A stretch of 64,000 nucleotides of DNA, taken from NCBI RefSeq assembly GCF_056712565.1, contig NZ_CM160072.1; one strand, 5' to 3'. Positions 1 to 64,000 of the stretch are shown one piece after another. Made by a program: the position numbers and the translations under genes. How positions within the stretch are numbered: position 1 is the stretch's first letter; each line of letters begins with the position of its first letter. Below the pieces are notes generated by a model. It saw only the letters and a program-made list of their open reading frames with translations, ran no database searches and had not been told where the DNA came from.

Positions 1-877
1 AGCCGCCCAGTGAACCTAAGCAACCCGCAGCTGCGCAGAAGGAAACAATGGCCCCGGCGGTGTCACCCAACGCCATCCGTGCGGCATCACCGAATGGCGA
101 AGCAGAAACGCGCAGTGCGGCATTAGGGATCATCCCCATAATCGCGGTGGTAGAAAGTACATAGCAAACGGCAGCAATCAATACCCCGCCAATGGTGGCG
201 ATAGGGACGTTGCGTTTCGGGTTTTTCACCACACCTGCGGCAACGGAGGCACTTTCCACACCGATGAACGACCACAGCGTAACGTTAAGGGTACTTTGAA
301 TCGCACCGAAGGTGCCCAGGCCGCTGACGTTCCATGCCGCCATATAGGTTTCACCACGGAACCAGAACCAGCCAAATACGGCAATCCCGACGATGGGGAT
401 CAGCGCCAGCACGGTAGCAACGGCCTGTACGCGGGTGATCATTTTCGGACCGACAATGTTCAGCAGGACGAAGATCCACAGCACCACGACGCAGGTGATG
501 GTTAATACCAATGGATCTTTCAGAATCGGGAAGAAGTAACTTAAATATCCTACGCCAATGACCACCATAGCGATATTGCCGATCCAGCAGGCCAGCCAGT
601 AGAGGACGTTGGTTTGATAACCGAGAAACGGGCCAAAGCAGCGGCGGGCGTAAGCGTAAGAACCACCAGGACTTGGGTCGAGGAACGACATTTTGGCGTA
701 TACCATCGAGAGCCCCAGCGCACCGATAATCGTCACCAACCATCCATAAATGGCAATCCCGCCAGTGGAGGCCAGGTTTGCAGGTAACAGAAAAACACCT
801 GACCCCATAATATTCCCCGACACCATCAGGGTGACGGGGATTAAGCCCACTTTGTGAGCATCAGCATCCGAAGACAT
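1..877 (-). CDS. adiC: Arginine:agmatine antiporter AdiC, partial (C-terminal part lies beyond the window start)
   Basis: Minus-strand reading from ATG at 875-877 gives [27 protein letters not shown]..., the AdiC N-terminus; ORF runs off the window edge; adiY/adiA neighbours as in K-12. Confidence 0.9.
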
Positions 878-1013
878 AATTAAACTCCTGCGAAGGCGAG
901 CTTCGTGACAATAAATTACGTCATATCATACGCCTGCATTCGATAGTTGAATTATTATCGGCCGGGTTATCGCTGATGCCGTTATTAATATAGCTCTTCG
1001 TTAAGGTTAAAAA

Positions 1014-1775
1014 TCAGGCGACAGTGCGTTCTCTGTGCTGACTAACATAATGCAGCGGCGTCATACCGTAGAAGTCTTTAAAGACAGAAATAAAGTACGA
1101 CGTACTGTTGTAGCCGCAGGACTGTGATACCTGAGAGATATTTTTACCGTCCATCATTAATTCATTTACGGCATAACGCATGCGGCAGGTGGTGATTATT
1201 TGGCTATAACTGGTGTTTTCGCTTTTCAGCTTTTTCTTTAACAGACTTGGGCTAAGACATAAACAACTGGCTACCATACTAAGATTCCAGTCTTTGTGGA
1301 TATCGCTTTCAATAATTTGATAAACGCTGTCACTTACACAATTACGTAACATATACATCATTAGTGAAAGGAATTTTTTACTGTCGAGAAAACGGGATAG
1401 CACAGTGAATAATAATGCACGTGTTCGTTCCTTTTCTGACTCAGTTTCAGCGGGCATCATGCTATGCTGCGCGGCAACGCGAAAGACGTCTGGCGTCAGG
1501 CATGGCAGGGTGAGGATGGGCGTAGCGCTACGTTGCCATACTGGTATTTGCGAGAGATCTTTATTCAGAAACCGGAGGTAATCTTTGATGATGTCGTGAC
1601 TAATATGAGCAACCAAAGTGTTATTAAGAGAGGAGACGTCGATAATATTATTTTCACAATTTAATAACGCCATGTGGTTAGCTTTAAGGCTAATAGGTTC
1701 TTTCCCATTCACCCTTATCCAGACATCTTTTTCAGTCAATAAAACAATACAAGGTTGGTCGCTGCAAATCCTCAT
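1014..1775 (-). CDS. adiY: AraC-family regulator of the arginine decarboxylase system
   Basis: 253-aa ORF, AraC-type C-terminal HTH, located between adiC and adiA. Confidence 0.9.
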   Translation of the reverse strand: MRICSDQPCIVLLTEKDVWIRVNGKEPISLKANHMALLNCENNIIDVSSLNNTLVAHISHDIIKDYLRFLNKDLSQIPVWQRSATPILTLPCLTPDVFRVAAQHSMMPAETESEKERTRALLFTVLSRFLDSKKFLSLMMYMLRNCVSDSVYQIIESDIHKDWNLSMVASCLCLSPSLLKKKLKSENTSYSQIITTCRMRYAVNELMMDGKNISQVSQSCGYNSTSYFISVFKDFYGMTPLHYVSQHRERTVA

Positions 1776-2110
1776 ACATGTACTCCTGAGTGCGAATAAA
1801 AGACCAGTTCTCGCTAAAGCGAAGCGATACCGGGAAATGGTTATATAATTGTATGATGAATATAAACATGCATAAAAATAACGAGTTTTACTAATATTAC
1901 AAATTTTTATAGTAATTTCTCATGTACATATTTTTTTACAGGCTAAAAAAAGGATAAATAACAGGCAAAAAAAAGCGCGGGGTGGGACCGCGCAAAAAGC
2001 ATGACATTTTTTGTTTGCAGCAATTTTTATGAAAACGTTGCCATACTTAAAAGGCCTCAAGCCAGGCGGCGTAATGTTATTTAACAATTACGCCTTCAGC
2101 GGAATAGTGG

Positions 2111-4378
2111 TTACGCTTTCACACACATAACGTGGTAAATACCGTCAATAATTTCTGTCCCTTCTGTTTCGTGTTCAAATCCAGGGAAATGATGGTCCCA
2201 GGATTGCAGCGAGCGTAAATAACTTACTTGCGGACTGTTTTTATCGCCGAAGTTTTCACCAGACAGCAGCATCGGGATTCCTGGCGGATACGGGATAACT
2301 GAGTTTGCCGCGATACGTCCTGGCAGATTTTCAATGGATACCAGTTCGACATTGTTGTCGACAATCGCGTTGTACGCTTCACGCGGGGTGATTTCCGCCA
2401 CCGGTAGGCCGGAATAGGCTTCATTCAACCGTGCGCCAGGGTTGTTTTCTTTCAGCCAGGCAAACATGGTGTCACCCAGATCGTGAATCCCTATGTTCGC
2501 GTAAGTGTCAGGATATTGTTCAACAAGTTCCGGCATCACCTGCGCCAGCGGTGTGTTGGCATCATAGTGGCGTTTGAAGGAGCAAAGGGTGTTAACCAGA
2601 GTCCCCCATTTCCCACGGGTCACGCCCATAGAGAACAGGAACATAATCTGGAAGTCAGTGGTACGGGTAGGCACAATGCCGTGGCGACCAAGCCAGGCTG
2701 TGACCAGCGCCGCCGGAACACCGGTTTCTTCCAGTTCACCATCTTCACCCATTCCCGGAGCAAGGATGCTGACTTTAATCGGGTCGAGCATACTCCAGTT
2801 ATCCGGAATATCTTTGAAGCCGTGCCAGCTTTCGCCCGGATGCATGACCCAGCAGTCCTGAACGGTGGTCAGCAGTTTGGTTGGTGCGTCAGCAAAGTCA
2901 TAGGTTTTGCCGGTTTGTGGGTCGGTGACGACTTCTTTGTTCCACGGTTTGAAGAACCAGCTACCGTCAGCGGTGAACTCTTTATACAGCCGCGCCATCG
3001 CCTGACGGAAATCAACCGCTTCGTCGATCACTTCCTGGGTCAGTGACAGGCCGCTGTTGCCGTCCATCATCGACACTGCCACGTCGTTGGATGCGCAGAT
3101 GGCATACAGCGGGGAGGTGGTGGCATGCATCATGTAGGCCTGGTTGAAGCGGGAGAAGTTAATCGCCCCACGACCTTCACGTACATGAATATAAGAGGCC
3201 TGGGACAGCGCATTCAGCAGTTTGTGGGTGGAGTGGGTGGCGAAAACGGTAGGACCGTTGTGATCGCCAGGTTCGCCGCGCATGGCATAGTGATCGGCAT
3301 AGATCGGGTTGAAACGTGCATAGCCGTACCAGGCTTCGTCAAAGTGCAGACGATCGGAGGTTTTTTCCAGCAGATCCTGCGCTTCTTTAGCGTTATAACA
3401 CACGCCGTCATAGGTACAGTTGGTCACCACGCAGTAAGACGGTTTTTGCCCGACTTTGTCTTTGGTCAGCGGGCTTTCACTGATTTTCTTCTGCAAGGTT
3501 TCAGGTTGCATTTCCTGCGGATAGATTGGCCCGATAATGCCGTAGCGGTTGCGGCTTGGCACCATGTAGACCGGTTTCGCGCCTGTCAGCATCAAGCCTT
3601 GTTCGATGGATTTATGGCAGTTACGGTCAACGACCACGACATCGTTATCGGTCATGCAAGCCTGCATGATGGTGCGGTTAGAGCCGGAAGTACCGACGAC
3701 TACCGACCAGGAGCGATCGGCACCAAATACGCGTGCGGCATATCTTTCGCTTTCGCCAAATGCGCCAGTATGGTCAAGCAAAGAACCGAGGGAAGTGCGT
3801 TCGATGCCCATGTCGGTGCGGAACAGATTTTCACCATAGTAGTCATGGTAGAAACGTCCGGCGGGTGTTTTGGTAAAACCAACGCCGCCCTGGTGGCCTG
3901 GCGCTGCCCAGGAATATTCATGGATGTCGCTATATTTCATCAGCGCGCTGAACAGTGGCGGCAATAGCTGCTGGCGGTAGCGGGTCATCGCGGCAACGGC
4001 GCGTCCGGCGATAAAGTCGGCAGTATCTTCCAGAATCCAGGCGAATTCATCGACAAGCTCCAGCAGGTCGCGATCCATTGCGGCGAGGGCTTTTTCCCGA
4101 TCGCCCAACAGGAAGACCGGCACGTTTTGTTGGCGCTCATGAAGCTTACCGATCAATTGTCTGACGTTTTGATGTTCGTCCGGATGTTCCATTTGATAGC
4201 TGAACATCAGGCAGTCAATGGCTTCGTTTGAAGAGAGAATGGCAAAACCATCATCAAAGGAGGTGGATTTAATCACGGTAACATTTTGCTGGCTTAAAGC
4301 ATCTGCCAGACGCTCAACGGCGTTACCGACCCAGGTGTCTTGATGGAGAAACTCGCTTTCAACAATTAATACTTTCAT
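2111..4378 (-). CDS. adiA: Biodegradative arginine decarboxylase (PLP-dependent, acid resistance)
   Basis: ORF track 756 aa starting MMKVLIVESEF; canonical start taken at second Met (755 aa); fold-type I decarboxylase paralogous to cadA. Confidence 0.95.
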   Translation of the reverse strand: MKVLIVESEFLHQDTWVGNAVERLADALSQQNVTVIKSTSFDDGFAILSSNEAIDCLMFSYQMEHPDEHQNVRQLIGKLHERQQNVPVFLLGDREKALAAMDRDLLELVDEFAWILEDTADFIAGRAVAAMTRYRQQLLPPLFSALMKYSDIHEYSWAAPGHQGGVGFTKTPAGRFYHDYYGENLFRTDMGIERTSLGSLLDHTGAFGESERYAARVFGADRSWSVVVGTSGSNRTIMQACMTDNDVVVVDRNCHKSIEQGLMLTGAKPVYMVPSRNRYGIIGPIYPQEMQPETLQKKISESPLTKDKVGQKPSYCVVTNCTYDGVCYNAKEAQDLLEKTSDRLHFDEAWYGYARFNPIYADHYAMRGEPGDHNGPTVFATHSTHKLLNALSQASYIHVREGRGAINFSRFNQAYMMHATTSPLYAICASNDVAVSMMDGNSGLSLTQEVIDEAVDFRQAMARLYKEFTADGSWFFKPWNKEVVTDPQTGKTYDFADAPTKLLTTVQDCWVMHPGESWHGFKDIPDNWSMLDPIKVSILAPGMGEDGELEETGVPAALVTAWLGRHGIVPTRTTDFQIMFLFSMGVTRGKWGTLVNTLCSFKRHYDANTPLAQVMPELVEQYPDTYANIGIHDLGDTMFAWLKENNPGARLNEAYSGLPVAEITPREAYNAIVDNNVELVSIENLPGRIAANSVIPYPPGIPMLLSGENFGDKNSPQVSYLRSLQSWDHHFPGFEHETEGTEIIDGIYHVMCVKA

Positions 4379-22610: not shown

Positions 22611-24149
22611 TTATTCTGAAGCGAGAAATTTGTCGAGATAAGGTACAACATAAGGAACAGAAGTCTGGAATATACCATTTTCAATCCAGTAAAGGGTGTT
22701 TGCCCCTGGGCGTAAATTAAAGGCGGTGAGATATGCATCAGCTGCTTCCCGGTTCATCCCCTTCATTTCATAAACCTTGCCAAGCAACACATAATTTAGC
22801 CAGGACATTTCAAGATCAATGCCGGTATTTATCGCCTGATAAGACTCATCTGTTTTACCTTTTACCAGGGCACTGACCGCTTTTATTTGATATATAATGG
22901 ACAGGTTGTTCAATTCCGGCAGTGTAACAATGTTATCTATTTCTGTGTTCAGTGCTGCTAATTGTTTTTCGTCTAAAGGATGTTGAGAATGGCGCACGAT
23001 ATCAACTAATGCTTTTTCTGCTCTCGCGTAGGTAAATTCTGGGGATGATTGAACAATCTCACCTAATAATTCACTGGCACGATCCAATGATTTATCATCA
23101 CCATGCAGTAAATAATCATGTGCCTGATAAAAATTAGTTAATAACGCACCACGATGCGGCAAAATTTGCTGGAGCATCTCCTGCATTCGTTGTGGCCACG
23201 GTTGGTTTAACGCTTTTGATAAACTCTGGAGCAAATCATTTTGAATCGCCAGCTGATTACCGTTAGTGATGACATAACGTTTATCCAGCATGGTTGAACC
23301 ATCTGCATTGTCTACCAATTTTACCGACATAAAGCATTGTTGAGCACGGTATTGGCGCTGATTAACAAACGCAATAGATAATGTTTTACCGGAACTGCTC
23401 GGTTCATCAATGTTGTAGTTGATTTTGTCATGCACCATAAAGGTGGAGAAGGTGTTAAGTGATGTCGCCACCAAATCACCCACGCCTATCGCGTAAGAGA
23501 GCTGATACGGAGAACTCCAGCTGTTACAACTCTTATTAACCATATTAATGTCAATATCGCGTGGATTGAGCAAAATGCGCGATTTACTCATAGGAAGACG
23601 TGTTTCAAGACTTGAAAACGCTACCAGTGCGACACAGATACCTAACGACAACAGGAAAAAAAACCATACCCAAAAGGTAGTGAATCGTTTGCTTTTAACT
23701 GGGGATTGTTCAGGTGGCGTTGTGGTGTTTTGAATGTTAAGACTGTGGGAGGGAGAATCTGTGGCAGGAACCGCCTCTGGTATAGGGGGAGGCGAAGATA
23801 GCATTATTTCCTCTCCCTCTTCTTCGCTGTACCAGATAACCGGCACCATTAATTTATAGCCGCGCTTTGGTACAGTAGCGATATAGACAGGACTATCTTC
23901 ATCATTATCTTTTAATGACTTACGTAGTTCTGAGATACTCTGCGTCACAACGTGATTGGTGACAATACTTCTCTTCCAGACATTATCGATAAGTTCATCC
24001 CTGCTAAGTACTTCGCCACTGTGTTGAGCAAAGAAAACCAGAAGATCGATTAATCTCGGCTCAAGGGTAAGTTGACGCCCATTGCGGCTAATTTGGTTTA
24101 TGGACGGAGTAACAAGCCATTCGCCAACGCGAACTACAGGTTGTTGCAT
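22611..24149 (-). CDS. cadC: ToxR-like membrane-integrated transcriptional activator of cadBA
   Basis: 512-aa ORF, N-terminal winged-helix domain, central TM segment (FTTFWVWFFFLLSLGICVALVAF), periplasmic sensor. Confidence 0.95.
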   Translation of the reverse strand: MQQPVVRVGEWLVTPSINQISRNGRQLTLEPRLIDLLVFFAQHSGEVLSRDELIDNVWKRSIVTNHVVTQSISELRKSLKDNDEDSPVYIATVPKRGYKLMVPVIWYSEEEGEEIMLSSPPPIPEAVPATDSPSHSLNIQNTTTPPEQSPVKSKRFTTFWVWFFFLLSLGICVALVAFSSLETRLPMSKSRILLNPRDIDINMVNKSCNSWSSPYQLSYAIGVGDLVATSLNTFSTFMVHDKINYNIDEPSSSGKTLSIAFVNQRQYRAQQCFMSVKLVDNADGSTMLDKRYVITNGNQLAIQNDLLQSLSKALNQPWPQRMQEMLQQILPHRGALLTNFYQAHDYLLHGDDKSLDRASELLGEIVQSSPEFTYARAEKALVDIVRHSQHPLDEKQLAALNTEIDNIVTLPELNNLSIIYQIKAVSALVKGKTDESYQAINTGIDLEMSWLNYVLLGKVYEMKGMNREAADAYLTAFNLRPGANTLYWIENGIFQTSVPYVVPYLDKFLASE

Positions 24150-24730
24150 AATAGAAACTCATTCGAAAAGGGAATGATGCAATGATAATTGCCATAACCT
24201 ATTTTTTCCATCTATAGATGGGTTTATTTACATATTATTGGTGAATGTAGGACGTTATTTTTACCCGCCATAAACTTCTTGATTACATAGTATTACGAAA
24301 GGATTTTACTGAGAACCAGAAGTAATTTTCCTTACCATCAAAATTCATCATCTTTGCCAAAGAAAAATGTTCAGAAAATAATCCATGAAAAATTGTCCGG
24401 AGCGCTTACTATTTTAATGGATTGTTAGTCTTTGCATGAGCAAACGGACTGATACATTTCTCTTTGTTCTCATTCAGAAAATCTCATCAGTTGGCGTTCT
24501 GCCCGATGTTGTGCTTTATGGGTGCGTTACGCTCCTGATGACGTCATTTGACGTTCAACAGCATCACGGGGCCGCACGACATTTCACGTCAGTCAGCGCT
24601 ATAGCTCAGAAACAAATTTTCCCGAATTGGGATATGCCCGCAAATTGCTGGTGATGTGGGGAGAATCTGGTTGAGTTCGGTAGAATTGATTTGGCGGCAG
24701 GACGCTTAAATCGTGGCGTCCTGAAACGAA

Positions 24731-24756
24731 AAACGGACCTCCGTGGAGGTCCGTTT
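24731..24756 (-). terminator. Native pheU-proximal terminator hairpin retained beside the att remnant
   Basis: aaacggacctcc-gt-ggaggtccgttt perfect palindrome immediately downstream (minus-strand sense) of the tRNA-Phe 3' fragment. Confidence 0.5.
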
Positions 24757-24765
24757 ATATGAATT

Positions 24766-24787
24766 TGGTGCCGGACTCGGAATCGAA
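24766..24787 (-). repeat. pheU: 22-nt copy of the tRNA-Phe 3' end (island attachment-site direct repeat); not an intact tRNA
   Basis: tggtgccggactcggaatcgaa equals the reverse complement of the tRNA-Phe 3' end TTCGATTCCGAGTCCGGGCACCA with one C missing; homology stops at 24787 and AT-rich foreign DNA follows. Confidence 0.7.
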
Positions 24788-24939
24788 TATTTTATTTATC
24801 ATATTGATATTGATGTGATTTATTTGGTTTGGTGAAAAATGTACCCTCTTTTGTACCCTCAGTCCCTTTTGCTGTGAAAAAGGAATCAAACCCGGGAGTT
24901 GGAAGATGAGGTGAAAAGGGGGACGCATAAAGGGATTCA

Positions 24940-24964
24940 CCTTAACAGCGTACTACTGTTAAGG
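24940..24964 (-). terminator. Stem-loop downstream of the island-terminal gene
   Basis: ccttaacag-cgtacta-ctgttaagg perfect 9-bp stem; no clear U-tract. Confidence 0.25.
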
Positions 24965-24980
24965 TGGGAGGACCATCTCA

Positions 24981-25544
24981 TTATCCCCACCGGTCCCATC
25001 TCACCAGGTTGTTGATGATAATTTTATTACTAAATTTGCAGGGCGGCCTGGTTTTGTAATCCCGGCTCAGTCCTCTGAAGGCATTGATCTCCCCCCGCTC
25101 AAACAGCTCATCCTTATTCTGGTGCAGTTGTTTAAATGTGCTCAGAATGTTCGCTTCGCTGATTTCCGGAAAATTATCATATTCCAGTGACCTGAACCCT
25201 GTATCACGTGCCTGTGCATCCATTAAGGAAAACATCCCGGAACGCTGCATCAGGTTACGCCAGATTTCGCGCTCAAGATTCCGGGTAATGGCTTTCATTG
25301 CTGTTTCTGGTTTCTCCATCATCCAGCAACCACAGCGAAAATTCTGTTTCATCGCCCAGTCCGGGGCGGCTTTACCGCCAATATTTTCCGTCAGTGCTGA
25401 GATTTCTGTCAGTTGCCGGATAAGCGTGTCGATTTGCAGTAGTGTACTCTTTCGTACAGCCAGGATGTGTCTGATACTTGTGGAACAGATAACGGCTGTA
25501 TGCCCGTTGACCGCGTTCGGGTGGGGGATTGTGATATCTGACAT
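24981..25544 (-). CDS. Hypothetical protein at the distal end of the CP4-like module
   Basis: 187-aa ORF with coding-like composition in operon orientation with the yeeW-like/cbtA genes; family not recognised. Confidence 0.45.
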   Translation of the reverse strand: MSDITIPHPNAVNGHTAVICSTSIRHILAVRKSTLLQIDTLIRQLTEISALTENIGGKAAPDWAMKQNFRCGCWMMEKPETAMKAITRNLEREIWRNLMQRSGMFSLMDAQARDTGFRSLEYDNFPEISEANILSTFKQLHQNKDELFERGEINAFRGLSRDYKTRPPCKFSNKIIINNLVRWDRWG

Positions 25545-32348: not shown

Positions 32349-33572
32349 ATGGCTAAAAACAAAGGTATCTGTCGGAATAAAAAATGCAGTAATCCTGTTT
32401 CAGAATTTGATGAGGCAAATGCCTTAAGGTTATGCGATGATCATTATAAGCTATGGAAGCGAAATAAAGAGAATCGTCGGGTCAGGAATATTTGTCGTAT
32501 AATTAGTAGATATGACAAAAGTCTGGACTGGGAGATATTTTATAGAGTAAGAGATGCTGCAAAAAATAAAACGGGAAAGAGAATTATTGAGGACGCAAAA
32601 ATATTACACCAATGGCGTGCTTCAAAGCAAGTAAGAAAAAGTTTTCACAAGGGTGTGCTTCGGTCACGGGAATGGCTTAATACACAGGAGTTACTGAGCA
32701 GAAAACATATATCTGTTACAGGTGAACTATTTAAATTTTACATAAAAGATATTATCAGATTATATTGCTATAAGTTTCTCTACAGCAGAGAATATCTTAA
32801 TGAAAACGCATACAAAAAACGATATCAGAGAGATATTCACCCCAGAAAAGTTAATGTTCCGATACTGCAACTTGAAGTTGCATGGATAAATAATAATTGC
32901 CGCTCAAGTGATTCAAGCACTGATATTATTATCCTTCCGAGGATGATAAGAAGAATGGTTGTATTTAATTATACGAAGATAAATAAACAATTAGAGAAAG
33001 TGTTGGGGGGGATAGCACGAAAACAAACCTCAGAAAGGAATAAAGGCGGTCTCTATACCAGAATAAAAAAAGAAAGTGACTTTCTTTCTATGGATAGATT
33101 TATGGTGGAAATAGAAAATATCATAAGACCTGAAAGGTTTCCTACATCAATTTATCCAGTCTTTTCACATTCATTTATTGAACGAGAGCTTCCGCTACTG
33201 AATCTTGCCCGATCACAGTATAAAAGAGCAATAAGTAAAAGAGTGGCGAATTCAATTTTTTATACTTTGCAAAAAACTAACGTGGCATTATGGCTATATC
33301 TTGAAATGTTTGCTCTGGTGGCATTCATTAAACTGTATACAGGAAAAGGTTTTGAATTCATAAAGAACATGTGTGTATTTATCGATTATGAGAAAGGGAT
33401 AATAAAATCCACACATGAAGAACTGCTGGGTGAAATTAAACGTAACATTCAAGTGAATTTGAAGGTGAATCCTGATAATTTTCCAGAGTTAATAGATATA
33501 TACAATTCATGCTTTAGTGAAAATATATTGTCATATGATATTCAGGATGGTAATTTTAAATGGCGCTCATGA
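32349..33572 (+). CDS. Hypothetical 407-aa basic protein with an N-terminal Cys4-type (zinc-ribbon-like) motif; AT-rich foreign gene, family not recognised
   Basis: Uninterrupted 1224-nt ORF in visibly AT-rich DNA, divergent from the GTPase gene; N-terminus CRNKKCSNPVSEF...LCDDHYKLW; Lys/Arg-rich. Confidence 0.6.
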   Translation: MAKNKGICRNKKCSNPVSEFDEANALRLCDDHYKLWKRNKENRRVRNICRIISRYDKSLDWEIFYRVRDAAKNKTGKRIIEDAKILHQWRASKQVRKSFHKGVLRSREWLNTQELLSRKHISVTGELFKFYIKDIIRLYCYKFLYSREYLNENAYKKRYQRDIHPRKVNVPILQLEVAWINNNCRSSDSSTDIIILPRMIRRMVVFNYTKINKQLEKVLGGIARKQTSERNKGGLYTRIKKESDFLSMDRFMVEIENIIRPERFPTSIYPVFSHSFIERELPLLNLARSQYKRAISKRVANSIFYTLQKTNVALWLYLEMFALVAFIKLYTGKGFEFIKNMCVFIDYEKGIIKSTHEELLGEIKRNIQVNLKVNPDNFPELIDIYNSCFSENILSYDIQDGNFKWRS

Positions 33573-35024
33573 TGTGAAAATATTAATTTCACATTACATA
33601 TTAATTATCCACAAAAAACATATAATTAATTTCAATGAGTTACATATAAAAACGTTGATGATTATCCAGCTTAGTATGGTTATGCAATGTGATGCTTAAC
33701 GCTTACAGATAATAACACATTCATATGAGCTATATATCATAATATTCAATAATCATGATATGCTAATCTGATTATGGATAAAAATTACTGAATGACGCCA
33801 TATTATGATTGGCAGTGTTTCCTGTATACGATGACTTATCTCTCCCGCATCATATGGGGGTACGTTTCTTAGGAAAAGTGACGGGGTTACAGAAGCCAAT
33901 TACGATAGTTTGTTGTAGAGTTATCACGAGTTTTTGTTGTTCTGAAGACGGAATCAGAAAAATAATTCCAGAGTAAACATGTCTGTTTTTTGACCAGTAA
34001 AGATCCATGCTGGCCGTGAAAAACTGAAATCAACACTCAGTCTGCATGGATGTCTGAAGATATTGAGAATGTCGGGAATGGTACTATATACGTATTATAC
34101 AGACATATCTTCACTAAGTGTTATACACGCATTTTCATAAACAATTCTACAAGTGTTTTCATTAAGCATTGCTGTACACATTGTTTGATCTGATACACAT
34201 CCAGTTTAGTAAATCTTTACGTTAGCTAAAATCAGTTTAAAGCTGCTACAAAACAATTTTTCTTGTTTAAGTAATCAGGATGATATTCTATTTTTCTGAA
34301 GTTACGTTTAACCTTTTCTTAGTTTTTGTGTTTTTAGTCGTTAACCTGAGACAAGTGTCTTTATGTAAAAACGCAAATCCGGCTGAGATAACCTGGCGTG
34401 ATTTACTGTGTGCTTACGATGATTTTGTTAAATGGTTTTATGGATGATTTTGTAACGATGAGATTGATGAGATGATTAACTGGCCCTGGTGTTTTTTCTC
34501 AGCGCAAGACTCTTTTCAGGAAAAGCGTGATGATTGGTTCTGGTGTTTTGATTCAGATGAGGTTTACGTTATCGATGGTTAACCGTTTTTATGGAGCGTA
34601 GTTAAAAGTAACGTTTTCAGTATAAGAAAATCGATTCTGATGTTGGTGGTTTTTGTTCTTGGGGCGGGGGTGTCTGTAAACAGGTTTTAATCGCGCTGTT
34701 CGGCTCTGTGATTGAGTTGTGTGGTTAAGCTGTAGGTGTGGTGTTGCTGTTGATTTACAGCGCCAGAAAGCGTTCTGATTGCGTTTCTGACGTTTTGTTT
34801 GCGCGTTCTGTTGATCCGTTTCCCTTCAGGCTTTGTAGTTTTTAAAAAACATTTATGCCGTTGTTGTGTGTTTTACTCTGCGTGTAGGTTTATTTTTTCT
34901 TCGTGGGGGATTCATTCTGTTTTAATCAGGAGCCATTGGCGTTGCTCAATGGCGGGATGCCGTAAAGTTTTACCGCAGTGATTAATGATGTGAAGTCAAT
35001 CCAAATCAACGGAGATCTCTCATC

Positions 35025-35756
35025 ATGAATCAACCAATACACAATGCTTACTGGTTATCCCGTTTTGAAAGTATTCTCAACAGTGCCCTGGCGCAACACC
35101 GTGCCGTCTCGTTAATCCGGGTGGATTTACGTTTCCCTGAGTATATGCCTGCCACCATCATGGATACCGATTTAGATTCAGCGGTGATTTCTCGTTTTTT
35201 TGCATCCCTGAAAGCAAAAATTCAGGCTTACCAGCGACATAAACGACGTGCCAACAAGCGTGTGCGTGCAACCACTCTGCGTTATTTCTGGTGTCGGGAG
35301 TTTGGCAAGGAAAAAGGCAGGAAACATTATCACGTGATATTACTGCTCAACAAAGATACCTGGTGCTCGCCAGGGGATTTCACCGTTCCTTCTTCGCTGG
35401 CGACGCTGATCCAACTGGCATGGTGCAGTGCTCTGCATCTCGAGCCCTGGCAGGGTAATGGACTGGTTCATTTTTCCAGGCGGACGCCTTTCCGTAAACC
35501 GACATCATCTGATGCTCGCCCTTCTTCCGATGATACGCCTTTGTCGGGTGGATGTTCTGAAACCAGGAAGGCTTCAGACAAAAAGTCTGGTGGATCCGCT
35601 GTGCTCTGGGTCAAGCGTGGTGATGTGGAAGCGATGCAGAAAGCCCGGAACAGAGCCAGTTATCTCGTGAAATATGAGACGAAGCAGCATGACGGTTCCG
35701 GGCAACGTAATTATGGTTGCAGTCGTGGGGTAGGGCGTCTACTGGATGGCAGGTGA
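35025..35756 (+). CDS. YagK/YfjJ-family protein (inovirus Gp2-like, HUH-type motif HYHVILLL)
   Basis: 243-aa ORF with RVDLRFPEY and HYHVILLL motifs; assignment from recalled family signature and island context. Confidence 0.45.
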   Translation: MNQPIHNAYWLSRFESILNSALAQHRAVSLIRVDLRFPEYMPATIMDTDLDSAVISRFFASLKAKIQAYQRHKRRANKRVRATTLRYFWCREFGKEKGRKHYHVILLLNKDTWCSPGDFTVPSSLATLIQLAWCSALHLEPWQGNGLVHFSRRTPFRKPTSSDARPSSDDTPLSGGCSETRKASDKKSGGSAVLWVKRGDVEAMQKARNRASYLVKYETKQHDGSGQRNYGCSRGVGRLLDGR

Positions 35757-36102
35757 GCCCTGTAAAACGGCATCCGGTACCAGAGTGTATGTCACGGTAA
35801 GGGCGTCAGCCAACGCCCTTAGATCGTTTTCTGCTAATAGCCCTGAAGTCATGAAACGGTATTTTTATCTGCTTCCGCTCCTGGAAACACTCCGTCGGTA
35901 AAAACTTACCGGGATGATTAATGATGTGAACCGAAGTCAACGGAGATCATTCCCCCTGAACCTGCATCCAGTGTTCTTTCCCTTATCTTCCCGTTCTGCT
36001 TCGGTTCTTCACTTATTCCATCAACTCCATCCGCAAACCATAACACGTCAGCTTATTCACGGGCAGGACGCATTGTGGGCTGCGCATAACGGAGCATATC
36101 TT

Positions 36103-36678
36103 ATGAATGCTATCCCTTATTTCGACTATAGCCTGGCCCCCTTCTGGCCATCTTATCAGAACAAAGTCGTCGGCGTCCTTGAGCGTGCGCTGCGTGAGCA
36201 GTCCGGCTCACGGATACGGCGGATCCTGCTTCGTCTGCCGTGTGAATATGACAATACCTTCAACAGCAGAACGACCTGGTTTGGTATGGATTTTATCGAA
36301 ACCGTCAGTGCGCTGATGAATGCAACCCCCGGACGTGATCTCTGCTGGCTCCTGACCCGTCATCCTGAAAAACCGGAATACCACGTGGTGCTGTGCGTCA
36401 GACAGGAGTATTTCGATGGCCCTGAATTGGACCGGTTGATACTGGATGCCTGGAGTAACGTACTGGGCTTCGCGTCACCGGGTGAAGCAAAGCAGTATCA
36501 GAAGCAGATCACCCGGGATGTGGTGCTGGACAGTCGTTCACCGGACTGTGAAAACATCCTCAAAGAGTTGATATGGGCGTTCAGTGATTTCGCCCGCGAT
36601 CGTCGTGGTGTGTGCGATCCGGAAGCCCGTTGCCTCGCCGGTAATCCCGGCTATCCCGGATCTGCAGGACCGTTCTGA
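36103..36678 (+). CDS. Second YagK/YfjJ-like paralog with degenerate HUH motif (EYHVVLCV)
   Basis: ORF track starts at 35914 but the first 63 codons are the conserved upstream motif and low-complexity sequence; Met at 36103 aligns with the paralog-1 N-terminus (RILLRLPCEY vs RVDLRFPEY). Confidence 0.4.
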   Translation: MNAIPYFDYSLAPFWPSYQNKVVGVLERALREQSGSRIRRILLRLPCEYDNTFNSRTTWFGMDFIETVSALMNATPGRDLCWLLTRHPEKPEYHVVLCVRQEYFDGPELDRLILDAWSNVLGFASPGEAKQYQKQITRDVVLDSRSPDCENILKELIWAFSDFARDRRGVCDPEARCLAGNPGYPGSAGPF

Positions 36679-36806
36679 AAGCTCGGTTCAGCATCTTTCC
36701 CTGCATTCGCACAAACTTCATAAATCTCACAAAGGACATTCTGACCATGTTGACCACAACAAGCCACGACAGCGTGTTACTGCGTGCCGACGATCCCCTG
36801 ATCGAC

Positions 36807-36980
36807 ATGAACTACATCACCAGTTTCACCGGTATGACCGATAAATGGTTTTACAAGCTGATCAGTGAAGGTCATTTCCCTAAACCCATCAAACTGGGGC
36901 GCAGCAGCCGCTGGTACAAAAGTGAAGTGGAGCAGTGGATGCAGCAGCGAATTGAGGAATCACGAGGAGCAGCAGCATGA
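36807..36980 (+). CDS. alpA: AlpA-family phage transcriptional regulator (excisionase-like HTH)
   Basis: TDKWFYKLISEGHFPKPIKLGRSSRWYKSEVEQW matches the AlpA signature; ORF track start 36747, internal Met at 36807 preferred. Confidence 0.7.
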   Translation: MNYITSFTGMTDKWFYKLISEGHFPKPIKLGRSSRWYKSEVEQWMQQRIEESRGAAA

Positions 36981-37098
36981 AACGTGTTGCAATACCAGCG
37001 CCGGCATTGCGGAAATCAGCCCTGTCCCCGATGCTGGCGACACTCCCGCTCATCTTTCTGCTGACTCCTCTGGTCTGCCAACTGTTTGTCATCATTTC

Positions 37099-37266
37099 CT
37101 GACTGATTCGTCATTCCCTTCGTCCCGCCAGTCACTGGTGTTTGTATCGTACCGTCCGGTGTTGATGTGCGTTTTCCGTGTGTCTGCACCGGCTTAACAA
37201 AATTCAACAGGGTTTGAAAAGGAACATTTCGTGCAAATAACCGAAGCCTTAATTTCAGAGCCGGGA
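37099..37266. repeat. Copy 1 of a ~150-170 bp repeat (inverted relative to copy 2 at 44502-44651) with a conserved 7-1-7 palindrome
   Basis: Manual alignment to the reverse complement of 44502-44651: blocks ccggctctgaaa, gcttcggttatttgca, tccttttcaaacc, cgccagtNactggcg, gaatgacga shared; roughly 75 percent identity. Confidence 0.6.
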
Positions 37267-44713: not shown

Positions 44714-46515
44714 GTAGGAGGCGGGATCACTCCCGCCGTCCTCTCACACCACCGTACATGCGGCTCCGCATACGGCGGTTCATGTTAACACTGGAACTGC
44801 CTCTGCTGTTCCAGCAGTGATATCAGACCCTGCCTGCTGAACCACGCATTCTTTATCGCCTGATTCATATGGCTTGACTCTGAGTTCCACCATGGCCCGT
44901 GGTTGTTGTACGCTGAGATCATCGCCCTGTCCTTACTCAGTCCTGCTCTTTGCAGGTTCTTTGCCCGGGTTAGCGGTCTCTTCCACTGCCGCTACAACAA
45001 GCAACGCAGTTTCCGTTTGATCCAGCCATCCAGCTCCTCCAGCACTCCTCTGACCTCCGTCAGCCTGAAGTAGCTTATCCATCCACACAGCACTGGTGTC
45101 AGAGCATTGATTGTCGCTTTCACTGATTTGCTCCGGTTTCCCGTCGTCAGACTGTGGACTTTCTCCTTCAGCCTGTTCACGCTCGTCAGGGCTATCTTCA
45201 GCTTCGCCTGTTTGTGCCATGTCACACTGTACCCGAGGAACTTCCGATCCCACGGGCGCGCCACCGCGCTCTTCTTCTCATTCACCTTCAGTTTGTTCTC
45301 CACGAACGCCCTGATGTTCTTCAGCAGATGGTCGCCCGCTTTCCGGCTGCTTACGTAGATGTTGCAGTCGTCTGCGTAGCGGCAGAAGCTGTGTCCACGA
45401 CGCTCCAGTTCTTTATCCAGTTCATCCAGCAGGATGTTCGACAGTAACGGCGACAGTGGGCCGCCCTGCAGCATGCCCGCCTGCCGTTTCTCCCTTTGCC
45501 CGTCTTTAACCATTTCCGCTTTCAGGTAGCGGCGTATCAGTCACAGCACCCGCCTGTCCTTTATCGTTCTGGCCAGACGCGTCATCAGGAGTCTGTGATC
45601 CACCCGGTCGAAGAACTTCTCCAGATCCATATCCACCACCCACCGTTTGCCACCCCGTATGTAACGCTGTGCCTGTTGCACCGCCTGCTGGATAAGCCTG
45701 TCCACCACCGTCGGGATGCCTGAGGTTCTCACGCCGCCATCCGGCTTCGGGATATCCATCCGGCGTATTGTCCGCGGCTGGTAGTTTCCGTCAATCAATG
45801 CCTGCCTGACGCTGCGCCAGTTCTTCTTCAGCCACGGTTTCAACTCCGCCACGCTGAGGTTATCCACCCCCGCCGTGCCTTTGTTTTCCACCACGCGCTG
45901 ATAAGCCAGCATCAGGTTTTCTCTCGTTATCACCGCTTCCATCGTCAGCGGCACTTCCGCTTTCGTTTGCCCACCCGCCGCCGTGCTGATTTCAGCGCCA
46001 TCATGCAGCCCTGACGGATACTGTCCGTCTCCTCTGCCGCTGGTCGCAGTGGCCTGCGCTTGTGCTTCATTAATCATCATCGGGTTCGGATGTCCTAATC
46101 ACAGTTAATCATGTTCGGCCCTTCATGCTGCCGGTTTTGCAGCACTACTACGGCGTCGGCTGACTTCTGCCGCCCCATCCCGGCGCCTCACGGCGCCGGT
46201 AGCACACTGGCAGGGCGACAGATCTCCCGGGGTAATTCACGCGACTTTCCTGCTTATGCCTGTCGGCTTTACGTCACAGCGTTCCGTGTGAGTATCGGGC
46301 TTTGGTGATTAGTGCCACCTTACCCTGCTGCGCCGCCTTAACCGCTTCCTGTTCGTCAGGCCAGCATTTTGCATCCAGCTTCCTTCAGATTTCACCTCGC
46401 GATGAACACCCTTGCCTTCCGCTAACACTTCCCCTCACCGGGTGTGTGGAGGACTTTCACCTCTTAGTCGTTCTTCTGCCACCACAGTTGAAGAACAGCG
46501 CCAGTCACGGCGCAC
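44714..46515 (-). mobile_element. Group II intron (bacterial class C-like: inserted just downstream of an intrinsic terminator)
   Basis: Minus-strand 5' end GTGCG at 46511-46515, six nt after the terminator U-tract; domain V-like hairpin (GAACCGCCGTATGCGGAGCCGCATGTACGG) and domain VI-like hairpin near 44715-44780; RT ORF inside; 3' boundary approximate. Confidence 0.7.
44992..45942 (-). pseudogene. Intron-encoded reverse transcriptase/maturase interrupted by in-frame stop codons
   Basis: RT motifs (GVDNLSV, QGGPLSPLLSNILLDELD, FCRYADDCNIYV) and X-domain (CGWISYFRL); in-frame TGA at 45541-45543 and TAG at 44992-44994 after which the frame still reads RQWKRPLTRAKNLQ. Confidence 0.7.
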
Positions 46516-62607: not shown

Positions 62608-63045
62608 TTGACTGGAAAATTATGTTGCAGGAACGTGAGGGCTGAGGAACAAAGCGTATTCCGGCGCTGTCCGTCCTTGCTGTCACTGACACTGATGTCT
62701 GCTTTATTATCGCCTTTATCTCTTCAGGCAGCGGATGTCCGGCGTAGCGGAGATGAAGCATTTATCATTCAGCAGCAGCGTCAGGAAGCCCTTGAGCAAC
62801 AACTGATGCCTTCAGCCCCTGATGTTCGCCTTTCTGCACCTGGCTCTTTTGCACGTAAGATTAATTTTCCTGTTGAAACGCCCTGTTTTCAGATTAAACA
62901 GACGGAACTGGAGGGGGCTGATGCGTTACCACACTGGCTGCCTTTACAAAAAATCGCCAACGGGGCGGTCGGGCACTGTCTGGGGGCGAAAGGAATTAAT
63001 CTGCTGATGAGTACATTGCAGAACCGTCTGGTCGATCATGGTTAA
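62608..63045 (+). pseudogene. TpsB-family (ShlB/FhaC/CdiB-like) outer-membrane transporter, N-terminal fragment only
   Basis: Signal peptide plus POTRA-like N-terminus ending ...[20 protein letters not shown] then stop; full TpsB proteins are ~550-590 aa. Confidence 0.55.
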
Positions 63046-63116
63046 CCCTTTCCGGTCAGCAGATAACGCGACTGACAGAATTACCCCCGGCATATAACCT
63101 GCAGCGCAGTGCGCAG

Positions 63117-63515
63117 TTGCTGCAGCAACTGATGGTACTTTTCCCCGACAATCCCCATGTTCAGGAAATGGTGGATAACTGGCAGAAGAGCGTAAGGAGT
63201 CGTGCGCTCCCGGAAGAGGCGATGACGGGCTGGAATGAAGGCATGACCCGCTTACAGCAGCTGGCTGAACGCCTGAACCGTCTGGATGAACAGCGGGGAA
63301 AATACATGACGGTCAGTGAACTGAGAACGGAGGTGTTTGGCATCATGCAGGCCTTTAACCGGCATATCCCGGCGGAAGAGCAGTTACGTCGCTATGATGA
63401 AGCCCGTAACCAGAATGGCAGTGAACAGCAGCAAAAACAGGCTGAAATGGCACTGAATCAGCTGATTAATCGTTATCAGGTGGAACACGCTGGCAAACCG
63501 GAGAGGCAGCCATGA
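63117..63515 (+). CDS. Hypothetical protein or gene fragment
   Basis: 132-aa ORF; reading frame extends upstream without a start; family not recognised. Confidence 0.25.
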   Translation: MLQQLMVLFPDNPHVQEMVDNWQKSVRSRALPEEAMTGWNEGMTRLQQLAERLNRLDEQRGKYMTVSELRTEVFGIMQAFNRHIPAEEQLRRYDEARNQNGSEQQQKQAEMALNQLINRYQVEHAGKPERQP

Positions 63516-63753: not shown

Positions 63754-64000
63754 GTGACAATAGCAAGAGATTCTGTTAGTGGTGAAATTGTTCATGGTCA
63801 TGATCTTCGGGAAATGGATGATCTTTATATACGAACAACCACTTTTGAATGCCCGTATGACAAATGTAGGATACCCGCTACTCCATGTAGCTTCAAAGAA
63901 ATAAATTTAAATCAATCATACTTTCGATATAAAGAGACTCATAGGCCGGGATGTAATATTCATGATCCTAAGAGTAAAAATAAGTGTAACTCAAAGAATA
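63754..64000 (+). CDS. Cys-rich hypothetical protein, partial (runs off the window end)
   Basis: GTG at 63754 preceded by AAAGGAG at 63742-63748; 82 codons without stop; AT-rich. Confidence 0.35.
   Translation, partial: MTIARDSVSGEIVHGHDLREMDDLYIRTTTFECPYDKCRIPATPCSFKEINLNQSYFRYKETHRPGCNIHDPKSKNKCNSKN

Follow-up and report, generated by a model that had tools for sequence, protein, structure and literature searches.

The 64,000-nt stretch analysed here (the window, contig NZ_CM160072.1) contains a short piece of a tRNA gene with no tRNA around it, which raises the question of whether a gene was broken at this point or an integrated element ends here, and, if so, which element. The piece lies at positions 24766-24787, where the plus strand reads TGGTGCCGGACTCGGAATCGAA. 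This matches the 3'-terminal 23 nt of E. coli tRNA-Phe(GAA) in reverse complement, except that one C of the CCC run is missing. The alignment (22/23 identical, one gap) bears out the first-pass annotation, which had described the last piece of tRNA-Phe with one C deleted. On the tRNA strand (minus), the piece reads TTCGATTCCGAGTCCGG-CACCA and one G of GGG is missing. A search tolerating 3 mismatches still found TGGTGCCGGACTCGGAATCGAA at a single place in the window, and 0/100 dinucleotide-preserving shuffles contained it. ARAGORN detected no tRNA or tmRNA over the 64 kb; hence the intact tRNA-Phe overlapping 24766-24787 that the annotation had considered as a competing reading is not present.

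The gene directly left of the fragment is cadC (22611-24149, minus strand), a 512-aa ORF annotated under this name in APEC O1, ATCC 11775 and K-12, with cadB and cadA located farther left. Because of these neighbours, the locus can be assigned to pheU, as had been claimed. In K-12, this site reads cadC, yjdQ (pseudogene), pheU and dicD, uninterrupted. The window stays collinear with K-12 from cadC across the fragment as far as GAATCGAA, where it departs, in agreement with the earlier statement that foreign DNA follows the fragment. The proposed comparison with an empty-site strain was extended to a survey of 5,426 complete genomes, in which a genome was counted when at least 80% of the query was covered in one place. 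An uninterrupted K-12-like pheU site (1,001-nt K-12 query) was observed in 3,715 of the 5,426 genomes, the junction of the window (1,451-nt query) in 621, and a pheU junction with a related distal arm (91-nt query) in 1,273. The island is missing at this site in other strains, its genes were not found at the same position in strains free of an insertion, and its junctions match attB exactly in the comparison of att sites described below.

As the window ends at 64,000, near-identical genomes, and not the window's own contig, are the source for the intact pheU and the integrase. ATCC 11775, the type strain of E. coli, is collinear with window positions 19533-64000, with 2 mismatches in 44,468 nt. 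Many ExPEC and APEC genomes match the junction, as well as the final 6 kb of the window, at 100% identity. Another nearly identical genome is that of APEC O1, whose island differs from that of the window and ATCC 11775 by a net 10 bp in length, at a point between window 24,765 and 58,000. In ATCC 11775, an intact tRNA-Phe gene (pheU) is found 23.9 kb past the window end, at 87,910-87,985 on the minus strand if the numbering of the window is continued. At 197 nt from it lies a P4-type integrase of 421 aa (86,447-87,712, minus strand), which contains Arm-DNA-bind_3, Phage_int_M and Phage_integrase domains and matches the phrog_1 integrase family. The genes past pheU are yjdC/dicD, dsbD and cutA, and the arrangement in APEC O1 is identical. 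The att-to-att length of the island, counted from the fragment to the tRNA 3' end, is 63,144 bp. Between the fragment and the intact tRNA, no extra tRNA-Phe fragments were detected beyond chance 10-12-mers. A tandem array of elements within the island was also considered and rejected, as no further partial tRNA-Phe copies mark their limits.

These observations bear directly on the possibility that the fragment is a truncated pseudo-tRNA, in which pheU was destroyed by unrelated DNA, leaving neither a second att site nor an intact gene. The window taken alone, with its 22-nt piece and no tRNA, would fit such a reading. It is refuted by the intact pheU of ATCC 11775: near-identical genomes carry both pheU and the integrase 63 kb away, and the same fragment terminates islands at pheV, where an intact tRNA is present too, so we consider it virtually out of the question. 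The fragment is instead, with a probability that we place at roughly 0.93, attR, the integrase-distal junction of a 63-kb non-conjugative mosaic island put into the 3' end of pheU by a P4-type tyrosine integrase. The main expectations of the first-pass annotation hold in this respect: the fragment behaves as the distal att site of an element in the tRNA 3' end, since the intact gene and the integrase lie 63 kb off, and both were identified beyond the window end in ATCC 11775 and APEC O1.

The annotation had also predicted that the island is over 39 kb long and composite, and the content agrees with this. The window includes 39.2 of the 63.1 kb (24788-64000), a part which is missing from the K-12 site and 99.9% identical to an island at pheV in strain 219. 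Starting from the fragment, this part comprises a yee module, an AT-rich stretch, Gp2-like and AlpA-like genes, an IS remnant, a truncated RND pump gene, the grp operon and T6SS fragments. The first island gene is a truncated DUF4942 (yeeW-like) pseudogene (24984-25544, minus strand). It belongs to a CP4-44-like yee module with DUF4942, cbtA and a yeeU-family antitoxin, a JAB-domain (radC/yeeS-like) gene, an antirestriction gene, DUF932 and a GTPase. The part of the island beyond the window includes a set of defence genes, Qat among them, along with copies of IS1 and IS3, a decarboxylase accompanied by two antiporters, and int. The GC content in 1-kb windows ranges from 32% to 57%, and IS1, IS3, truncated genes and group II intron fragments contribute to the mosaic.

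Several individual segments deserve description. The most AT-rich part of the window (32349-35024, 32-38% GC) consists of a hypothetical ORF of 407 aa (32349-33572, plus strand) followed by about 1.45 kb without an annotated gene, and an inovirus-Gp2-like gene (35025-35756) lies directly past it. A 77-aa AlpA-like candidate excisionase/regulator (36747-36980, plus strand) matches phrog_2790, "excisionase and transcriptional regulator", with E = 6.4e-10. This candidate, the Gp2-like gene and a transposase remnant are found together at 35025-37100, in the middle of the island, and the group looks like the integrase-proximal part of a second CP4-like unit lacking int and att. Such a unit would fit growth of the island by accretion; no internal tRNA-Phe fragment is left near it. 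A complete-looking grpA-grpS operon for a glycyl-radical propanediol microcompartment occupies 40238-60592 (minus strand). It is split between grpO and grpP by fragments of a group II intron reverse transcriptase/maturase (44992-46080), whose length is annotated differently in ATCC 11775 and APEC O1. At 62695-63515 (plus strand), fused T6SS fragments were observed, in which a POTRA-domain gene without its C-terminus is joined to a VasL-domain gene lacking its N-terminus; they are remains of a further module within the island.

Past the window end, the defence cluster includes qatC, qatD, a KAP/P-loop NTPase gene and a hypothetical gene, together with a SLATT-domain gene and a nucleotide-binding-domain gene. 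At about 75,571-81,088 in window-style numbering, an IS1-flanked Orn/Lys/Arg decarboxylase gene is accompanied by two basic amino acid/polyamine antiporter genes. With the native cadCBA and adiA/adiY/adiC (window 1-4378), this decarboxylase forms the third acid-resistance-type module in a stretch of about 90 kb.

The P4-type integrase and the integration site are also shared with other kinds of elements, and the island could in principle be an integrative and conjugative element, such as the pheU/pheV user ICEEc2, or a prophage. ICEs do use pheV and pheU (PMC11537424). However, in the RefSeq annotation of the 63 kb, no relaxase, type IV secretion, capsid, tail, terminase or lysis genes are present. 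As no conjugation or virion genes are annotated, the island is neither an ICE nor a prophage on that annotation, and we regard this alternative as very improbable.

A second copy of the island was identified in strain 219, between yqgA-pheV and yghD, with the same gene order and mostly the same protein accessions. There, the Phe repeats are 64,318 bp apart, and the island ends in the same 22-nt fragment. The pheV and pheU copies share 99.4-99.9% identity over about 64 kb, and the homology is bounded by the Phe repeats. The two copies differ only by an IS903B insertion and by an inversion flanked by IS1. The IS903B element lies midway through the KAP NTPase region, for which the strain 219 annotation gives two shorter ORFs. 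The inverted segment, relative to ATCC 11775 and APEC O1, lies between two IS1 copies (window-style 81,176-84,673) and carries a MarR-family regulator gene and an IS3 remnant, which indicates IS1-mediated inversion in the island. The integrase of strain 219 is frameshifted, and on this basis at least some copies of the island are immobile. The genes flanking pheU and pheV are unrelated, which makes site-specific recombination the simplest explanation of how the entire composite could have passed between the tRNA-Phe genes. Either of these genes can be occupied by the island, which is a single discrete unit.

The pheV copy is also relevant to how this lineage came by the island. The junction could be a real attR and yet not record an integration in this lineage, if an already occupied pheU was inherited by homologous recombination of a large segment, through conjugation or transduction; the scar would then be an older event that took place elsewhere. 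In favour of this, many ExPEC and APEC genomes share the 1,451-nt junction at 100% identity, as expected if an established locus spread vertically or by homologous recombination; the flanking core genes are conserved, and the ST95 lineage could have received the integrated island by way of flanking core DNA. Against this, the pheV twin with its precise att ends requires site-specific movement at least once, and the identity of the feature would be the same under either history. We consider such an inheritance unlikely, although it deserves more weight than the other alternatives discussed here. The preferred assignment of the fragment as attR of the P4-type island at pheU is retained in what follows.

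The one-base gap in the fragment was found to be a regular feature. Five other pheU junctions (CFT073, O104:H4 2011C-3493, TOE17, MS21199 and KGu016) all read TGGTG-CCGGACTCGGAATCGAA, and the distal arms of these islands are 85-93% identical to that of the window. The base is missing in all pheU and pheV attR sites examined. In Table 1 of Phan et al. 2024 (PMC11537424), TTCGATTCCGAGTCCGG-CACCA is given as the attR of GI-pheV in APEC O1, S88, ED1a, H10407, 536, 55989 and many others, and that paper calls it a "23-bp imperfect attR". A chimeric query composed of the window arm, the 22-nt fragment and the K-12 sequence downstream of pheV matched strain 219 at 100% and was covered to at least 80% in 805 genomes. 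The 91-nt junction occurs at an identity of at least 99% in 94 genomes only, a count that had suggested a lineage-specific mutation. This was rejected on the five diverged junctions and the alignment of the pheV junction. Since the gap is shared by diverged pheU islands, by attR sites at pheV and by the published GI-pheV attR, the missing base is, as judged from sequence comparison, a property of the attP of these islands, not a local mutation, damage or a sequencing error. The earlier description of a deleted C is correct in that the base is absent; what does not stand is a reading as local damage, because it belongs to the standard attR of the island family.

The att comparison covered six sites, among them attL and attR at pheU and at pheV. 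At attL, both pheU and pheV show a tRNA body ending in ...CCGGGCACCA (GGGCACCA), followed by the island leader AGTTCATATCAACGG (AGTTCATATC). At attR, both show the island arm ...AAAATA joined to TTCGATTCCGAGTCCGG-CACCA; then pheU continues with AATTCATATAAACGG (AATTCATATA), the K-12 pheU type, and pheV with CTAATTCTTAAG (CTAATTCTTA), the K-12 pheV type. According to the mechanism that we propose, the attP of the island would carry its own copy of the tRNA-Phe 3' end, with GG in place of GGG, followed by the terminator hairpin, the integrase leader and int. The reconstructed attP would thus consist of the arm, TTCGATTCCGAGTCCGG-CACCA, AGTTCATATC..., the hairpin, the leader and int, with the junction ...AAAATATTCGATTCCGAGTCCGG-CACCAAGTTCATATC... 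Recombination would rebuild a complete pheU at attL, with the body and GGG supplied by the chromosome and the terminator by the island, and the shortened island copy would land at the far end, joined to the DNA formerly downstream of the tRNA. Integration would in this way exchange the last bases of the tRNA and its terminator for island copies, and pheU would stay functional.

The same sites suggest where the strands were exchanged. GGG is retained at attL but GG at attR, and native flank sequence begins directly behind CACCA, at +1; both strand exchanges can therefore be placed within the last 7 nt, GGCACCA. This probable confinement assumes that the GG/GGG difference was neither made nor erased after integration. 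Seven nucleotides is also the size of a tyrosine-recombinase overlap region. Two of the leader positions compared, +2 and +10 after CACCA, distinguish K-12 from the island, and the window flank has K-12-type bases at both; this places the exchange at the core and not elsewhere in the 156-nt homology described below.

On the island side of attR, an AT-rich distal arm (24788-24983) would represent the P arm of attP. A motif scan placed two copies of (T/A)TGTACCCTC in this arm, at 24839-24848 and 24851-24860, and another, inverted, within the integrase leader; the core of (T/A)TGTACCCTC is kept among arms otherwise 85-93% identical. These (T/A)TGTACCCTC / GTACCCTC repeats are candidate arm-type integrase sites, in line with the Arm-DNA-bind_3 domain of the integrase. 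The island may also be able to excise, as suggested by the intact int ORF and the AlpA-like gene, but the latter is located mid-island, away from int, a point against the preferred reading of the locus.

On the other side of the fragment, an intrinsic-terminator-like hairpin with a T-rich tail was observed at 24721-24756 (minus strand), with 11 bp, 6 G-C pairs and a 4-nt loop. Its stem (24756-24731, minus strand) begins 9 nt downstream of the fragment on the tRNA strand, and the predicted folding energy is -25.2 kcal/mol (z = -3.8). The predicted hairpin combines a G+C-rich stem with the U-tract tail TTCGTTTCAG on the minus strand, as is characteristic of Rho-independent terminators. An identical stem follows the intact pheU, and the hairpin at the attR end has no tRNA upstream. 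This orphan copy, oriented to face the minus-strand yee genes, could stop read-through toward cadC.

The first-pass annotation had called this hairpin the native terminator of pheU. Its sequence is indeed the same as in K-12. The similarity to the island, however, does not end with the hairpin: a long imperfect direct repeat, made up of the tRNA-Phe 3' fragment, the terminator and an integrase leader, spans 24633-24787 (minus strand), and 141 of 156 positions (90%) are identical to the interval between pheU and the integrase. The repeat extends about 110 nt beyond the hairpin, and its attL copy is the leader that runs into the integrase start codon. In the window flank, the leader runs into ATA-GCG-CTG... 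(K-12: GCA-CTA), corresponding to integrase codons 1-11, of which 8/11 are identical. What follows is a decayed P4-type integrase (24412-24602, minus strand), equivalent to K-12 yjdQ, in which codons 1-11, with ATG changed to ATA, are fused to approximately codons 359-420 and a frameshift is present. A tblastn search with the island integrase against the flank recovered, besides the match at residues 1-11, residues 397-420 at 71% and 359-391 at 52% identity, and the flank matches the 3' end of int at 69% of nucleotides. RefSeq annotates an integrase pseudogene at 24409-24568, named yjdQ in K-12; our literature search for "yjdQ" returned no papers. The yjdQ-type remnant is not part of the 63-kb island but a relic that an older element left at pheU.

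The pheV locus offers a comparison for the origin of the hairpin, as the K-12 sequence downstream of pheV is unrelated and has a different hairpin. A chimeric query joining K-12 yqgA-pheV to the island leader was covered to at least 80% in 3,040 of the 5,426 genomes, many of them at 100%, and the integrase follows the leader in all of the best 12 of these 3,040 matches. Because pheV, whose native downstream sequence is unrelated, carries the leader in 3,040 genomes, the hairpin and the leader can be assigned to the integrase modules of Phe-tRNA islands. One could still suppose that the terminator and leader are native pheU flank captured by islands through imprecise excision. The 90% identity of the attR and attL leaders over 156 nt and the position of the hairpin, where a tRNA terminator is expected, agree with such a capture. 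Yet the K-12 and window flanks run unbroken into the first 11 and then the last approximately 60 integrase codons, and the leader follows pheV in those 3,040 genomes, with an integrase behind it in the best 12 listed, and the capture is accordingly judged improbable. A truly native terminator was likewise rejected on the pheV comparison, the chimeric query and the continuation of the flank into integrase codons. We conclude from the alignments that the supposed native terminator of pheU most probably is integrase-leader sequence from an older P4-type element and not ancestral chromosome. Of the earlier claim, the identity with K-12 is maintained, and the native origin is replaced by a leader belonging to an integrase module. 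The DNA downstream of pheU would then already have been the wreck of an older related element when the island arrived, with its leader, its terminator and an integrase lacking codons ~12-358 (yjdQ), in K-12 too.

These points can be combined into a broader proposal, for and against which we see the balance as even. The attP of Phe-tRNA islands may have a built-in, self-perpetuating core that is one base short and limits the exchange to GGCACCA. In addition, the K-12-type "empty" pheU, found in 68% of the surveyed genomes, may be the scar of an ancient P4-type element, which would supply the pheU terminator and 156 nt of extra homology absent at pheV. If this is true, the extra homology at pheU could make integration, excision or stability differ between two target genes that are otherwise identical.

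The analysis defines where a 63-kb accessory region ends in a major lineage of extraintestinal pathogens, comprising ST95-type strains and the type strain of the species. It also suggests caution in annotation: the 22-nt fragment should not be taken for a damaged tRNA, nor the missing base for a sequencing error or decay. The K-12 "empty site" holds old island DNA, and boundaries drawn by homology to K-12 consequently stop one element too early. The feature itself is ordinary and already known, an attR of the usual type for P4-integrase islands, at a well-known integration hotspot and with an attR string published for pheV islands, and it leaves the current understanding of genomic islands unchanged. 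The integrase remnant, annotated in K-12 and RefSeq, and the genomes carrying the island were also already public. The additions made here are small: the 156-nt extended repeat, the probable island origin of the pheU terminator, the probable attP origin of the missing base with the 7-nt exchange interval, and the 99.9% identical pheV twin. We found no published account of this ST95 pheU island; the MS7163 paper is indexed for "GI-pheU", and the passage was not located in its main text.

All tested features of a GI-pheV/GI-pheU-type island were found, namely a tRNA with an adjacent integrase, the attR repeat, an empty site, a copy at pheV and mosaic content. Integration into a tRNA 3' end by means of an attP that regenerates the gene is characteristic of phage P4 and of K-12 cryptic elements of the CP4-44/CP4-57 type. 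With these elements, the island shares an integrase with an arm-binding domain, the tRNA 3'-end target, an AlpA-type regulator and the yeeS/T/U/V/W module. Unlike phage P4, it has no annotated genes for P4 replication or helper exploitation, and its cargo consists of metabolic (grp) and defence genes. PAI-CFT073-pheU and the islands of O104:H4 2011C-3493, TOE17, MS21199 and KGu016, compared at the junction, occupy the same locus with the same 22-nt attR, its missing base and the yjdQ remnant. Their distal arms are related, most of them ending in a DUF4942 gene. The CFT073 island presumably carries a pap operon rather than grp. The closest published relatives are the intP4 islands termed GI-pheV (Phan et al., PLoS Genet 2024, PMC11537424), which have an identical attR, including the gap, a P4-type integrase beside the tRNA, flu/yee-type modules and a mosaic structure. 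The island described here differs from them in occupying pheU next to cadC, where the flank carries an older integrase remnant and the repeat does not end with the tRNA but reaches 156 nt. That remnant corresponds to K-12 yjdQ (b4654), which is collinear with the interval from cadC to the fragment in the window; in K-12 it adjoins an intact pheU, whereas in the window it adjoins the 22-nt attR.
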